64,000 nt of DNA, from contig QZJS01000003.1 in NCBI GenBank assembly GCA_003597945.1, forward strand, positions 4,039 to 68,038, read 5' to 3'. Origin of the DNA: Desulfobacteraceae bacterium. Its GTDB lineage: Bacteria > Desulfobacterota > Desulfobacteria > Desulfobacterales > Desulfosalsimonadaceae. Each line of letters begins with the position of its first letter. Within the stretch, counting starts at the first letter, position 1. This document shows, piece by piece, positions 10,992 to 42,419 of this stretch. The translations under genes and the position numbers were made by a program. Below the pieces are notes generated by a model. That model was given only the letters and a program-made list of their open reading frames with translations, did no database searches and was not told where the DNA came from.

Positions 10992-11142
10992 AAAGGTCAC
11001 ATATGACCACCGGCACAATATGACCTTTTTTGAATGGTTTTTGATGACCGCTCCGCAAATGATTTTTAAATTGATAATTCATAAAAATCAAAATGATGAA
11101 TCGCATATCCGCGGATAATACAGACCTGGCACGAAGATTGAA
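10992..11142 (+). promoter_or_regulatory. sigma-54 promoter cassette A (UAS + AAATCA element + -24/-12 box)
   Basis: UAS is GGTCACATATGACC (10995-11008) plus AATATGACC (11017-11025), flanked by A- and T-runs. AATCA is at 11086. TGGCAC (11127-11132)-gaaga-TTGA (11138-11141). It lies 185 nt upstream of CDS 11327. Confidence 0.7.
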
Positions 11143-11326
11143 GATATCCTTGATAGCGTCCCATTCAGTCAAGGCTGAACCCAAATTTACAAGTAATTAG
11201 AATTATATGAAAAAATAATATTACTTAGAAGAATAAAACCTTAACCATCAGCGGACAAAAAAATCCTCCGGAAAAAGCATTCCCGGATTACTAAACAATA
11301 CGCCAAAGAATCAAGGAGAAGGCATC

Positions 11327-11974
11327 ATGAAAACAACAAACTTTATCGGACTTGTTTTTATCGGACTTGTTTTGGTCGCGGTCACCGGTTTTTCGGGCTG
11401 CGCTTCGACGGGCATGCAGCGTTCGACGGAAGCAAGAGCAACGATGGAAACCATGGACAACGATATTAAATTAATTGTCGCTCAACTGGACGCCGCGGGC
11501 GCTTCACTGAATGAACTGACACGGCCCGGTCAATCAGATGCGAAAAAGGCTTTTGATTTATATTCGGATAACATTTCAAAACTCATTGAAATGGAAAATA
11601 AATTTTCCCGAAAAGCCGATGAAATGAAGGATCGGGGTAACGAATATTTCGAGGAATGGCAAAAAGAAGGGAATAAATACAAAAACTCCGAAATACAAAG
11701 GCTCAGTGAGCAGCGTCGTATGGAGCTTGCCGAGATCTATGACAGAATACCCGTAAACAGCATCGGCGTGAAGGATGCTTTCAAAGCCTATGTTTCCGAC
11801 GCGAAGGAGATTCAGATTTATCTTTCAAACGACTTGACGTCCAGGGGAATTGAAGCGATTGCTCCGATCGCAAGGAGAGTCGCGAACGAAGGAGATCAGC
11901 TTAAATATGAATTAAAGGCTCTTGAAATGTCAATTGAAAGGGCAAGAGCGGCGATGGCCCAAAGTGGGAGATAA
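11327..11974 (+). CDS. coiled-coil lipoprotein (DUF2959-like)
   Basis: 215 aa with signal peptide and lipobox (FSGC). The rest is helical and charged. Family assignment is by recall only. Confidence 0.6.
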   Translation: MKTTNFIGLVFIGLVLVAVTGFSGCASTGMQRSTEARATMETMDNDIKLIVAQLDAAGASLNELTRPGQSDAKKAFDLYSDNISKLIEMENKFSRKADEMKDRGNEYFEEWQKEGNKYKNSEIQRLSEQRRMELAEIYDRIPVNSIGVKDAFKAYVSDAKEIQIYLSNDLTSRGIEAIAPIARRVANEGDQLKYELKALEMSIERARAAMAQSGR

Positions 11975-11989
11975 CGTGCAACGTGCTAA

Positions 11990-12019
11990 GTATAAAGTAT
12001 AAAGTATAAAGTATAAAGT
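11990..12019. repeat. heptamer tandem repeat (GTATAAA x4)
   Basis: Four perfect copies of GTATAAA in the 90-nt spacer between CDS 11327-11974 and CDS 12065-13069. Confidence 0.8.
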
Positions 12020-12064
12020 GAATTTAGCTCTTAAATTAACGAAATTATCGAAAAGGAGAAAACC

Positions 12065-38966: not shown

Positions 38967-40970
38967 ATGAATAAACCGCGAAAAACAGAGCAGGAACTTT
39001 TACATGAGCTTGAAGAGCTCAGATCCCGGCTAACGGAAGCCGATGACACGTTGCGCGCCATCCGAACGGGTGAAGTGGATGCCCTGGTGGTCTCGACCGT
39101 CGAAGGAGATCGTATTTTTACGCTTTCGGGCGCCGACCGCCCTTACCGGATGATGGTGGAGACCATGAACGAAGGCGCCGTCACCCTGGCCGTCGACGGA
39201 ACGATCCTTTTCTGCAACCAGCGTTTTGCGGACATCATCAAAACGCCTCTTGAAGAAGTCATCGGAACTTTGTTCCGGAAATATATTTCCCCAACAGACC
39301 ATCACATCTTTGAAGCAATAATTGCACGATGTGGGAAGGTTAACTGCACGACGGAACTGGAATTACAGACCGGGTGTGGGAAATCCGCTCCCGCCCTGCT
39401 CTCCGTAAGCCCCCTTAGGCAGGCCGATGTCCCCGGTTCGATGTGCGCGGTGATCACCGATCTGTCGAAACAAAAACGCAATGAAGAAATGCTGGCTGAA
39501 GAAAGACTGACAACCCAGCTTCTCCAGCAAACCTCGGAACTTTTTTTTATCTGCGACAGCAGGGGCCGTATTATCCGCGCCAGCCAGTCGGCTATCGGGG
39601 TTTTGGGCAGAACCCCGGTTTTTGAGGAATTTGATGAGGTATTTCACCTCCTTTATCCCGACGGGACGCCTTTTATTCTTCGTTCTGAAATACGCAAAAA
39701 ATTTCTCCACGGCGTGGAGGTCGTTTTCACCAACGGGGGGATTGAATCCTGTTTTCTGTTAAGCGCAAATCCGCTGATCAATCGTCAGGAAATCATCGGA
39801 ATTGTTGTCGTCATCGTGGACATCACGGACCGTAAAAACATGGAGGAGAAAATTCAAAAATCCCATGACGAGCTCGAAACCCTGGTTGAGGCGCGAACGG
39901 CCGAACTTTTGATCGCAAAAAAAGCGGCGGAAGAAGGAAGACAAGTCGCCGAGGCATCTCTTTTAGAAATAAAAAAGTTAAAAGAACAACTGGAAGCGGA
40001 AAGAGCCTATCTGCAGGAAGAGATTAAACTGGAGTATAACCATGAAAACATTATCGGTCAAAGCGACGGGCTCAAATACGTACTCTTTAAAATCGAACAA
40101 ATCGCCGCCACCGACACCACCGTAATGATTCTTGGCGAGACGGGAGTCGGCAAGGAACTGGCCGCCCGGGCCATTCACGACTTGAGCTTGCGCAAAAACC
40201 GGGCCCTGGTGAAAGTCAATTGCGCCGCGCTTCCCTCAAACCTGATCGAAAGCGAATTGTTCGGCCATGAGAAAGGCGCTTTCACCGGTGCTCATATCAA
40301 ACGGCTGGGACGCTTTGAGATTGCCGACGGCGCCACCCTGTTTTTGGATGAAATCGGTGAATTACCGCTGGAACTCCAATCAAAGCTGCTTCGCGTGCTC
40401 CAGGACGGCGAGTTTGAGCGGCTGGGCGGCACACGCACCATCAAAGTCGATACGCGGATTATTGCCGCCACCAATCGGAATCTGGAAGCGGAAGTCGACA
40501 AGGGCGGTTTCCGTAAGGACCTCTGGTATCGGCTCAATATTTTTCCGATTACCATGCCGCCGCTCCGGGATCGCCTGGATGACATACCCATGCTTGTAGA
40601 TTATTACGTCAAAAAAATTTCAAAGCGGATGGGTAAGACCATTGAACTTATACCCGATAACGTCATGAATACGCTGCGAGCGTATCACTGGCCGGGAAAT
40701 GTCCGGGAATTGGAAAACGTCCTTGAGCGCGCGGTGATCAACTCATCAGGGTCAAAACTGCGCCTGGCTGATGAGCTCAAGACGCCGTTTAAGCGCTTAT
40801 GCATCGACCACAAAACCCTTGAAGCCGTTGAACGAGACTATATTGTTCAAGTCCTCGAAGAAACCGGGTGGAAAGTCGGCGGAAAAAACAGCGCGGCTGA
40901 AATCCTTGGGCTCAAACGAAGCACCCTGCGCGCCCGCATGCGCAAACTCGATATCCGGAAACCAACATAG
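38967..40970 (+). CDS. sigma-54-dependent transcriptional activator (bEBP): coiled coil + 2 PAS + AAA+ + Fis-type HTH, no receiver domain
   Basis: 667 aa with [15 protein letters not shown] Walker [16 protein letters not shown] (GAFTGA loop), [13 protein letters not shown], and the C-terminal [22 protein letters not shown]. It starts 13 nt after the kaiB2 stop. Confidence 0.95.
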
Positions 40971-41054
40971 CTTTCTCTTTACCTACCGCGGCAGCTTTCT
41001 CCCTATTTAAATCGTTTCTCAACGCCTTTCCGATCTTCCATCATTTACTTCGTC

Positions 41055-41207
41055 AAAAAAAACCATATATGGCCGCCGGGTAAATATGGCCTTTTTTCTG
41101 CCCTGTCGCCGATTGTTCCGTAAATTCATATTATCGTGATTATTATTTAAAATCAGGATAATAGGCGATACTTTGCCAGGCATTTGAGACCTGGCACAAA
41201 GTGTGCA
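41055..41207 (+). promoter_or_regulatory. sigma-54 promoter cassette G
   Basis: AACCATATATGGCC (41061-41074) plus ATATGGCC (41084-41091) plus T-run. AATCA at 41151. TGGCAC (41192-41197)-aaagt-GTGCA (41203-41207). This is the only copy with a canonical -12 GC. Confidence 0.75.
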
Positions 41208-41326
41208 GCTAAGTTGCATTAGACGTGGATAGGCCGAAACGACTCCCCAACTGTATCGAGGCGTTAAGCAGGCCGAGTCGATATGCCCACCCATCGGGTA
41301 AACAAATCCATTCTGGAGATGGCGTT

Positions 41327-42271
41327 ATGTATATGACGGGAAGTGATGTTAATCATAATGTTCAACAAGTCTTAGATCCTGAATTGCCTGCGGCCGAGAT
41401 AGCGTCGTTTCGGATCGATCCGTTAAAACGGTATATGTTTGAGATCGGGCAATGCAAAGTGCTTCCACGGGATGAACAAAACAATCTTGCCATTCGTTAT
41501 CAGGAAAATCATGAACCTGAAGCAATTACATTACTGGTCACGTCGAATTTGCGACTGGTGTTTAAAATCGCAAGGGACTTTCAGCGGCCCTGGATGCAGA
41601 ATCTGCAGGATTTGATCCAGGAAGGGAATCTCGGGCTCATTCGGGCGGCCGAGAAATTCGATCCTTATCGCGGCGTCAAATTCTCATATTACGCTTCTTT
41701 CTGGATCAAAGCGTATATATTGAAATTTATATTAGATAACTGGCGATTGGTCAAAATCGGCACCACGGGAGCCCAGCGCAAGCTCTTTTTCAGGCTCAAC
41801 AAGGAAAAGGAAAAATTGATCAACGAAGGATTTGAGCCTGAGCCCGGACTTTTATCCCAGAGACTCGGTTTATCCCATAAAGATGTCGTTGACATGGATC
41901 AACGCTTAAATTCCTGGGATGTATCCCTGAATGAACCTGTTAAAGAATATTCGAATAAGGAGATGATCAATTATATTCCCGCGGAAAACAAATCGCCTGA
42001 AGAGCAAATCGCCGACAACCAAATCCAGGAACTCCTGCATCAAAAAATTAATGAATTCAAATCCACAATTACCCCTAGAGAATGTGAAATATTCGAAAAA
42101 CGCATCTTTACCGAAGACCCCGTCACTTTACAGAAACTTGGGGGCCGTTTTGGAATTACCAGGGAAAGGGTCCGCCAGGTGGAGAAAGAAATTATCCATA
42201 AAATCAAAATATTTTTTGAGCGTGAAATACCGGATTTTCAAAATTTGCCTCGGTATGGAGCATCCGTATAG
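41327..42271 (+). CDS. rpoH: RpoH-like (sigma-32 type) sigma-70-family sigma factor
   Basis: Region 2 reads DLIQEGNLGLIRAAEKFDP. An RpoH-box-like QRKLFFRLNKEK is present. Region 4 reads GITRERVRQVEKEII. I chose the ATG at 41327 (GGAGA RBS). The track's GTG at 41225 would lie within roughly 20 nt of the -12 element. Confidence 0.8.
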   Translation: MYMTGSDVNHNVQQVLDPELPAAEIASFRIDPLKRYMFEIGQCKVLPRDEQNNLAIRYQENHEPEAITLLVTSNLRLVFKIARDFQRPWMQNLQDLIQEGNLGLIRAAEKFDPYRGVKFSYYASFWIKAYILKFILDNWRLVKIGTTGAQRKLFFRLNKEKEKLINEGFEPEPGLLSQRLGLSHKDVVDMDQRLNSWDVSLNEPVKEYSNKEMINYIPAENKSPEEQIADNQIQELLHQKINEFKSTITPRECEIFEKRIFTEDPVTLQKLGGRFGITRERVRQVEKEIIHKIKIFFEREIPDFQNLPRYGASV

Positions 42272-42419
42272 GGCCATATGTGGCCGTGAGATAAAATGTG
42301 ACCTTTTTAATGAGGCGTTAATGGTTGCCCCGAGTAAAATTTCAAAACCAATTATTAATATAAATCAGAATGATAAGCAATATTTAGCTTGGTTTTAAAA
42401 ACCTGGCACAAAGATTGAA
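42270..42419 (+). promoter_or_regulatory. sigma-54 promoter cassette H
   Basis: GGCCATATGTGGCC (42272-42285) plus ATGTGACC (42296-42303) plus T-run. AATCA at 42363. TGGCAC (42404-42409)-aaaga-TTGA (42415-42418). The UAS abuts the rpoH-like stop codon. Confidence 0.7.

Follow-up and report, generated by a model that had tools for sequence, protein, structure and literature searches.

The question raised by this locus is whether a long run of genes in an uncultured Desulfobacteraceae bacterium is controlled as one regulon, and by which protein. In the 64-kb window analyzed here (the whole stretch of 64,000 nucleotides from contig QZJS01000003.1; all coordinates are window positions), the genes between 11.3 and 49.8 kb, ~34 in number, all lie on the + strand and form eight units, one behind each of eight copies of a cassette of ~165 bp. 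The cluster is flanked by clpS/clpA-aat on one side and by secA-folD-asd on the other. Each cassette contains an upstream activating sequence (UAS), an element resembling a binding site of integration host factor (IHF) as well as a -24/-12 box. According to our analysis, the eight cassettes are very probably sigma-54 (RpoN) promoters with a shared enhancer, which would constitute a single regulon under the activator encoded at 38967-40970.

A nhmmer profile built from the eight window cassettes was scanned against the window and against other Desulfobacterota loci. In the window it recovered exactly eight full-length copies within 32 kb, all on the + strand, with E-values from 3e-38 to 1e-29. 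All eight are intergenic and located upstream of + strand genes, and none was found in the 32 kb of flanking housekeeping sequence. The copies and their parts are as follows.

Cassette A, 10980-11147, + strand: UAS palindromes at 10995-11008 and 11012-11025; IHF-like core AATCAAAATGATG from 11086; -24/-12 box TGGCACGAAGATTGA at 11127-11141; predicted transcription start at ~11153; nhmmer E 3.4e-38.
Cassette B, 18344-18510, + strand: UAS at 18360-18390; AATCA at 18450; -24/-12 box TGGCACAAAATTTGA at 18490-18504; nhmmer E 3.8e-38.
Cassette C, 23838-24005, + strand: UAS at 23853-23883; AATCA at 23944; -24/-12 box TGGCACAAAGATTGA at 23985-23999; nhmmer E 1.2e-36.
Cassette D, 26512-26688, + strand: UAS at 26523-26554; AATCA at 26625; -24/-12 box TGGCACGACAATTGA at 26666-26680; nhmmer E 4.7e-31.
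Cassette E, 32810-32973, + strand: UAS at 32822-32853; AATCA at 32912; -24/-12 box TGGCATACAAATTGA at 32951-32965; nhmmer E 1.1e-29.
Cassette F, 34738-34900, + strand: UAS at 34745-34775; AATCA at 34837; -24/-12 box TGGCACAAAAATTGA at 34878-34892; nhmmer E 2.8e-34.
Cassette G, 41049-41211, + strand: UAS at 41061-41091; AATCA at 41151; -24/-12 box TGGCACAAAGTGTGCA from 41192; nhmmer E 3.2e-38.
Cassette H, 42258-42426, + strand: UAS at 42272-42303; AATCA at 42363; -24/-12 box TGGCACAAAGATTGA at 42404-42418; nhmmer E 1.9e-36.

The copies were located exactly where a preliminary description of this DNA had placed them, and their orientation toward + strand genes and their internal distances were reproduced when measured again: the end of the UAS and TGGCAC are 98-103 bp apart in seven of eight copies and 112 bp apart in D, the spacer of which is ~10 bp longer than in the other copies, and AATCA precedes TGGCAC by 39-41 bp in all eight. 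When the eight regions are aligned, conserved blocks alternate with non-conserved spacers of fixed length, and the mean column identity is 60%. Apart from these copies, the profile matched the window only at the palindromes as read on the reverse strand and at a single isolated palindrome near 36260. A ninth cassette was considered and rejected: the profile recovered none, the palindrome at 36261 is isolated, and 25122 and 55336 are weak single matches. No tRNAs were found in the window, and no Rfam family matched at the gathering threshold, either in the long 5' leaders or elsewhere in the window.

The -24/-12 boxes were examined as motifs in their own right. The pattern TGGCAC-N5-TTGM occurs exactly at 11127, 18490, 23985, 26666, 34878 and 42404 on the + strand of the window, i.e., six times against 0.35 expected, and six were reached in 0 of 100 shuffles. 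Cassette E (32951) reads TGGCAT-N5-TTGA and cassette G (41192) reads TGGCAC-N5-GTGCA. Overall, the -24 box is TGGCAC in seven copies and TGGCAT in one, with the N5 spacing retained in all eight, as in sigma-54 promoters, and its GG and CA are nearly invariant among 72 external copies.

The UAS consists of two tandem 14-bp palindromes GGYCAYATRTGRCC, the centers of which are 17-18 bp apart; it therefore has four half-sites, and not three as had been described at first. With up to two mismatches, the 14-mer GGYCATATRTGRCC gives 28 strand-hits in the window against 2.45 expected, usually two per cassette. At the third half-site this genome has the degenerate form GGTWA, and most relatives have GGTCA. 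The consensus of the external copies is aaa.GGtCAtATaTgaCC-A.t-GGtcA.ATATGACC-tttttt, with a palindrome spacing of 17 or 18 bp, and the end of the UAS lies 99-103 bp from TGGCAC in 72 of 80 external copies. Relative to the predicted transcription start, the centers of the palindromes lie ~134 and ~151 bp upstream. We know of no activator site that matches a pair of GGYCAYATRTGRCC palindromes 17-18 bp apart. Six variants of the 14-mer, looked for in the searchable literature, led to no known activator site with such a sequence, and no such motif is listed in the accessible part of Kazakov 2015.

A predicted, near-consensus IHF site stands between UAS and promoter, at a distance of ~40 bp upstream of the -24 box. 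It reads AAATCA(A/G)nAtGAT in the window, follows ATTATTATTAAA-like AT-rich tracts and agrees with the IHF consensus WATCAR-N4-WTR. The external consensus is ATtaTt.tta.AaATCAa.atgaT for the IHF region and cTGGCAc.AA..TTGaa for the promoter; compared with WATCAA-N4-TTR, the sole departure of the external IHF element is the first T of TTR, replaced by A in 48 of 70 copies. In Desulfovibrio, joint action of IHF with sigma-54 and an activator of the PAS type has been described (PMC8359166).

A fourth conserved block, tCCnGnAAA, is found ~25 bp downstream of the UAS in every cassette (~11051-11062, 18412-18421, 23905-23914 and equivalents). It reads cctg.aa in the external copies and is not accounted for by the activator, IHF or sigma-54 motifs.

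The protein assigned to this UAS is encoded within the cluster.

38967-40970, + strand: sigma-54 enhancer-binding protein of 667 amino acids, recognized by Pfam, by its motifs and by the adjacency of its homologues to the UAS.

It is the only DNA-binding regulator in the cluster. Its domain order is a PAS-PAS sensor module (~1-300), a coiled coil, an AAA+ domain (PF00158, E 6e-70) with Walker A and B and with GAFTGA at residues 437-442, and a Fis-type helix-turn-helix (HTH) domain (HTH_8, 617-661). By these features the predicted product is a true sigma-54 activator, and it combines, as expected of an enhancer-binding protein, an HTH with a cognate dyad UAS 98-112 bp upstream of -24, to which binding is predicted.

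A scan of a genome collection with the activator protein returned 80 loci from Desulfobacterota metagenome-assembled genomes (MAGs), with the closest relatives in Desulfobacteraceae and Desulfobacterales MAGs; L040, from the cultured strain NaphS2, is among the loci with the module. The search for the motif in relatives that the preliminary description had suggested was made with the cassette profile, and it yielded 73 further full-length cassettes in ~50 of the 80 loci, that is, in ~50 other genomes. Enough downstream sequence for an adjacency count was present in 69 loci; in 55 of these the stop codon of the activator homologue's gene is followed within 700 bp, and mostly at 20-250 bp, by a UAS of two tandem palindromes. 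Only 30 other tandem-palindrome pairs were found in 1.07 Mb, and many of them belong to additional cassettes. In addition, the HTH/recognition helix region is nearly invariant among the homologues. The proposal that one activator serves all eight units is thus supported by comparative adjacency of UAS and gene, rather than by proximity alone. Most homologues have ~500-520 amino acids and a different N-terminal PAS domain; the coiled coil, AAA+ and HTH are shared, with ~75% identity from residue 279-303 onward. In a typical homologue locus the activator gene is followed by a cassette and by genes for an ABM protein, a B12/radical-SAM protein and a 92-amino-acid protein (h92), and additional cassettes precede BON, ABM and h92 genes. 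The regulon in the window is the largest seen among these loci.

From established knowledge of sigma-54 systems we infer activator binding, DNA bending, rpoN dependence and the transcription starts, which together suggest the following mechanism. Dimers of the PAS-AAA+-HTH activator would bind the two adjacent 14-bp palindromes ~134 and ~151 bp before the predicted start, and an IHF-type protein would bend the DNA at the WATCAR-N4-WTR site centered near -60. The activator hexamer could then contact the sigma-54 holoenzyme at TGGCAC-N5-TTGA, leading to the open complex, and transcription would start ~12 nt after the -12 box. The predicted targets comprise an envelope and stress group (OsmY-like BON, OmpA-like and lipid-transport-like proteins, ClsB, surface proteins and the ABM/B12-radical-SAM pair), an RpoH-like sigma factor that would open a sigma cascade, and the operon of KaiC, two KaiB proteins and the activator itself, through which the system would exert positive autoregulation.

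The -12 box deserves separate consideration. In the -12 consensus TTGCW, the G is nearly universal, and the C is a consensus feature that is not obligatory. The G is present in all eight cassettes and TTG in seven; C follows in cassette G alone, and the other seven boxes read TTGA. Both this count and the remark that such a box is unusual had been made before, and re-reading bears them out. Among 71 external copies the fourth base is A in 50, G in 12, C in 5 and T in 4. Since the lack of C recurs throughout this regulon in the other genomes, it should be regarded as a family trait of these promoters and not as noise. Two explanations had been offered for it, and weak stability of the closed complex fits better than a lineage-specific preference of sigma-54. 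A deliberately sub-optimal -12 box is favored over a changed sigma-54 because cassette G has the canonical TGCA in the same genome; because the -12 consensus in Desulfovibrio is tTGCt, as given for the Desulfovibrionales (PMC4641369); and because Pseudomonas putida uses TTGAAT without top expression. In the latter case, an in vitro study of the sigma-54 holoenzyme with 1.5 million templates found TTGAAT to be a second functional -12 motif, and the top expressers carried TTGCAT alone, with TTGAAT absent (PMC11997794). The A-for-C replacement is probably a conserved design feature that would keep closed-complex occupancy low, so that output strictly tracks the activator level. No -12 details are given in the accessible part of a paper on phylogenetic trends of enhancer-binding proteins (PMC12316311). 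Promoter matches with TTGC outside the cassettes numbered 11 in the fetched loci, against ~5 expected by chance, and several of them were recognized inside coding sequence.

The canonical -12 TGCA (41192-41208) is unique to the cassette before the RpoH-like gene and may rank this promoter differently from the seven TTGA promoters. A further promoter class, TGGCA(C/T)GAAGCTTGGATATA, was noticed outside the recognized cassettes in the Desulfatiglandales loci L056, L057, L061, L023, L042 and L043; with their TTGG -12 box, they probably belong to the same regulon as members that have diverged.

Eight copies of ~165 bp with palindromic ends within 32 kb might also be taken for a dispersed repeat of the repetitive extragenic palindromic (REP) or miniature inverted-repeat transposable element (MITE) type, the likeness to promoters being incidental. 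We rejected this candidate as extremely improbable: identity is limited to the functional blocks and the fixed-length spacers are not conserved, all eight copies are co-oriented with and upstream of the downstream genes and absent from the flanking housekeeping sequence, and the cassette keeps its position relative to the activator gene in ~50 genomes, the proteins of which are only ~75% identical. It is also conceivable that another enhancer-binding protein, with its gene in some other part of the genome, activates the cassettes as sigma-54 promoters, and that the adjacent activator has other targets. Desulfobacteria have up to 50-69 enhancer-binding proteins per genome (PMC12316311), and the window covers no more than 64 kb of this genome. 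Nevertheless, such an arrangement is very unlikely, given that 55 of 69 loci from throughout the phylum have the UAS right behind the gene of the activator homologue and that the HTH is conserved together with the UAS; furthermore, activator genes were usually co-localized with their promoters in the Desulfovibrio regulome study, as cited in PMC8359166.

Less remote, albeit still unlikely in our view, is the possibility that the UAS serves mainly or additionally as an intrinsic terminator (an A-tract, a hairpin of the two 14-mers and a U-run) that insulates the upstream unit. In most genomes this unit is the activator gene, which would be constitutively expressed and thereby parted from the sigma-54 unit with its tight regulation. 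As the two 14-mers are complementary to each other, the UAS RNA would form a long hairpin, with predicted folding energies (kcal/mol) of -29.0 in B, -20.1 in C, -18.1 in E, -15.1 in A, -11.4 in D, -10.9 in G, -10.4 in F and -8.8 in H, and z-scores of -4.2 to -8.3 in five of the eight. However, adjacent palindromes make a hairpin automatically, and folding energy does not separate a terminator from a binding site; the stems are, moreover, AT-rich, whereas those of terminators are GC-rich. A run of 5-8 T directly follows the UAS in all eight cassettes, T is kept there in ~70-78% of the external copies, the A and T runs are confined to the outside of the palindrome pair, and a consensus scan marks several copies as terminator-like. 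Yet cassette A keeps its T-run without a co-directional upstream gene, its upstream neighbor being the divergent clpS gene, and at 36257-36281 the isolated palindrome forms no good hairpin, although A and T flank it as well. Covariation was detected between left position 3 and right position 12 (57 complementary pairs vs. 44.5 expected, 0 of 500 shuffles, 91 distinct copies) and more strongly between the first flanking bases (62 vs. 28.2 expected, 0 of 2000 shuffles), although covariation among related sequences can stem from shared ancestry or from lineage-specific protein preferences. Finally, terminators are normally not conserved in sequence across operons and ~50 genomes, and the UAS is. 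The reading of the cassettes as sigma-54 promoters under the 38967-40970 activator is preferred, with the following points weighing on the other side: seven of the eight -12 boxes are without the consensus C, for which a lineage-wide shift in sigma-54 specificity is an alternative, less well fitting explanation; no rpoN or IHF genes were found in the 64-kb window, and their presence in the genome is assumed from the phylum; the KaiBC-linked activators of loci L087-L089 are only ~60% identical in their C-terminal part, and these loci have no cassettes; and the terminator form of the UAS, with the covariation at its outer flanks, means that part of its conservation may serve RNA structure.

The genes behind the cassettes are listed below, except for the end of unit F.

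Unit A, 11327-18233, + strand: DUF2959 protein, OmpA-like porin, GDSL lipase, 939-amino-acid AsmA/YhdP-like protein, DUF1318 (YdbL-like) protein.
Unit B, 18564-23811, + strand: FadL-like outer-membrane protein, 808-amino-acid ice-binding-like/SpaA/IPTL-CTERM surface protein, 175-amino-acid protein, SEC-C motif protein.
Unit C, 24078-26406, + strand: two proteins of ~97 amino acids (one with a weak DUF883_C match), Phage_holin_3_6 (YqjE-like) membrane protein, DUF2914 protein.
Unit D, 26831-32700, + strand: 870-amino-acid DUF11 surface protein, PAS histidine kinase, receiver protein, receiver-HD protein.
Unit E, 33101-34618, + strand: 505-amino-acid ice-binding-like/He_PIG/IPTL-CTERM surface protein.
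Unit F, first two genes, 35118-36317, + strand: small outer-membrane beta-barrel protein, single-domain receiver.
Unit G, 41327-42271, + strand: RpoH-like factor of the sigma-70 family, predicted target of cassette G.
Unit H, 42505-49753, + strand: OsmY-like protein with three BON domains, DUF4398 protein, DUF4398-OmpA protein, two unknown proteins, ABM-fold protein, B12/radical-SAM (DUF4070) protein, 92-amino-acid protein, ClsB-type cardiolipin synthase.

The starts given in the list of open reading frames (ORFs) after cassettes B and G are too early, and the likely ones are ATG 18564 and ATG 41327. Taken together, the predicted target genes read as an envelope-remodeling and stress programme. 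A type VI secretion or flagellar cluster, guessed from ORF sizes, was rejected, as Pfam gives envelope, stress and signaling genes instead. The sigma factor of unit G scores 251 bits with TIGR02392 (cutoff 323) and 239.5 bits with NF005143 (cutoff 241); as the predicted target of cassette G, it would establish a sigma cascade. The ABM, radical-SAM and h92 genes of unit H (46370-49753) are a conserved unit beside the activator family in more than 40 Desulfobacterota loci, with ClsB in some of them, and lipid modification is a possible role for their chemistry.

In unit A, the 939-amino-acid protein, which has weak AsmA/YhdP-like matches in its N-terminal part, is followed by the DUF1318 protein (14849-18233). 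This pair recalls the lipid-transport locus ydbH-ynbE-ydbL of Escherichia coli. The ice-binding-like (PF11999) surface proteins at 20074-22500 and 33101-34618 carry IPTL-CTERM sorting signals, for which the window shows no sorting enzyme. A probable toxin-antitoxin pair, made up of a PIN-domain (VapC-like) gene and a small ORF upstream of it (50035-50669), borders the cluster on its downstream side, immediately ahead of secA.

The end of unit F links the regulon to Kai proteins, as kaiC and two kaiB genes precede the activator gene.

36488-38248, + strand: two-domain KaiC of 586 amino acids, with an SS phosphorylation site and a coiled-coil extension at the C-terminus.
38250-38579 and 38621-38953, + strand: two kaiB genes, directly upstream of the activator gene.
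36257-36281, + strand: lone 14-bp palindrome AAAAGGCCATATAAGACCTTTTTTT with A and T flanks.

KaiC scores 737 bits with NF006799 (cutoff 408), and its best solved relatives are the Rhodobacter sphaeroides KaiC structures 8DBA/8FWI (E 5e-192); the alignment with 8DBA extends over residues 11-550 and takes in both the SS site and the coiled coil. The KaiB pair was recognized by PF07689 (E 1.6e-26 and 1.8e-26) and scores 101.6 and 97.9 bits with the NCBIfam KaiB model, just below the cutoff of 110. With a double-domain KaiC, a coiled coil and KaiB, the predicted system is of the KaiA-independent Rhodobacter type. Across loci, KaiB1 is 81-89% identical and KaiB2 51-71%. An orthologous cassette precedes the operon for the outer-membrane protein, KaiC, two KaiB proteins and the activator in L002, too, and the position of cassette F upstream of the kai-activator operon would give positive autoregulation. 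The lone palindrome, situated in the receiver gene at its 3' end and ~210 bp upstream of kaiC, is not accompanied by a -24/-12 box and could serve as an individual site for the activator or as an internal attenuator.

The activators encoded after kaiC-kaiB-kaiB in the window, L002 and L007 differ from the other homologues in their N-terminus, a PAS-PAS module of 300 amino acids. Homologues of this module, 40-63% identical over its full length, occur in fusion with sigma-54 AAA+, GerE/LuxR, HWE or HisKA kinase and GGDEF domains, and in seven of the seven other contexts examined (L082, L084-L089) the module-bearing gene stands directly after kaiB; in L085 this position is occupied by a homologous PAS module with an HWE kinase. 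No solved structure related to the sensor module was found at E 1e-3 or better. This context suggests that the module is a portable Kai output adaptor. That KaiC and KaiB gate the activator of the window through its N-terminal PAS module is a tentative proposal drawn from gene context, to which we give somewhat less than an even chance. No cassettes were found in the other KaiBC-activator loci L082 and L087-L089, and L084, alone of these loci in having a cassette, carries a separate canonical activator of 511 amino acids. The divergent C-terminal halves in L082 and L087-L089, together with the lack of cassettes there, suggest that the fusion of the Kai module to this DNA-binding family is clade-specific. 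Transposase fragments of the ISL3 family (9283-9893) interrupt the KaiB-linked activator gene of L082, a locus from a Planctomycetia MAG.

In Rhodopseudomonas, Rhodobacter and Legionella, a PAS histidine kinase is encoded after kaiB. To our knowledge, the targets of these kinases are not known, and the outputs of non-cyanobacterial KaiBC systems are an open question. Operons of the kaiC-kaiB-PAS/kinase type have been described in R. palustris and R. sphaeroides (PMC4794148), and the PAS domains of KidA bind fold-switched KaiB (PMC9478674). No literature linking KaiC to sigma-54 or to enhancer-binding proteins was found, and gating of a sigma-54 activator by KaiBC is apparently a new reading.

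The post-kaiB protein of the window is predicted to bind DNA itself, at evident sites, and a candidate output of ~34 genes can therefore be listed. If this reading is correct, a non-cyanobacterial KaiBC timer would for the first time have its complete transcriptional output readable from sequence, in the form of the eight promoters, and timed or metabolic-state-gated envelope remodeling, with an RpoH-like sigma factor and kai feedback, would take place in a non-photosynthetic anaerobe. The main interest of the locus is that the output of a non-cyanobacterial Kai system becomes testable. If only the basic regulon holds, the locus still adds a new and well-defined member, from an uncultured lineage, to a textbook class. 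In addition, the locus belongs to a phylum-wide natural series of more than 80 promoters with a fixed enhancer-IHF-promoter geometry and a conserved non-consensus -12 base, suited to studying how -12 strength sets activator dependence, and its enhancer may double as a terminator.

Among known systems, the classical NifA/NtrC-type sigma-54 promoters with an IHF-assisted enhancer, e.g., Klebsiella nifH and Pseudomonas Pu, provide a close architectural frame: they share the dyad UAS ~100-150 bp upstream, the IHF site between, the TGGCAC -24 box and an activator with GAFTGA in its AAA+ domain and a Fis-type HTH. Here, in contrast, the -12 box is a conserved TTGA/TTGG and not TTGC, the eight units are clustered in one 39-kb block, and the UAS, GGYCAYATRTGRCC twice, matches no activator site known to us. 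The regulon thus has a textbook sigma-54 architecture and is not categorically new, although its predicted activator is a new variant, apparently wired to KaiBC. A sigma-54 promoter that drives an alternative stress sigma factor of the sigma-70 family, as predicted for cassette G, is known from the Rrp2-RpoN-RpoS cascade of Borrelia and from the sigma-54-dependent P6 promoter of E. coli rpoH; the activator, the enhancer and the organism are different, and in the window the sigma gene is one of eight targets.

Within the same phylum, the orp operons of Desulfovibrio vulgaris are controlled by OrpR, sigma-54 and IHF (PMC8359166). OrpR resembles the activator of the window as a one-component PAS-AAA+-HTH protein whose gene adjoins its promoters and which is IHF-dependent in D. 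vulgaris; however, it binds GGGCGYRTTTTGCGCCC, which differs from the UAS of the window and excludes OrpR as its known activator, and it has only two targets. Furthermore, the PAS domain of OrpR carries an Fe-S cluster, no Kai genes are located nearby, and the Desulfovibrio -12 box is tTGCt. KidA of Synechococcus elongatus (PMC9478674), likened to the window module by PAS type only and not by sequence, is a multi-PAS protein in which contact of the N-terminal PAS domains with fold-switched KaiB serves as a precedent for the binding that we infer in the window; it has GGDEF/EAL outputs and tunes the oscillator. Finally, the kaiC-kaiB-PAS/kinase operons of R. palustris and R. sphaeroides (PMC4794148) share with the window the KaiC subtype, a PAS signaling protein encoded right after kaiB and no visible kaiA, whereas the window has two kaiB genes, apparent autoregulation and, as its predicted output, a sigma-54 AAA+ domain with an HTH.

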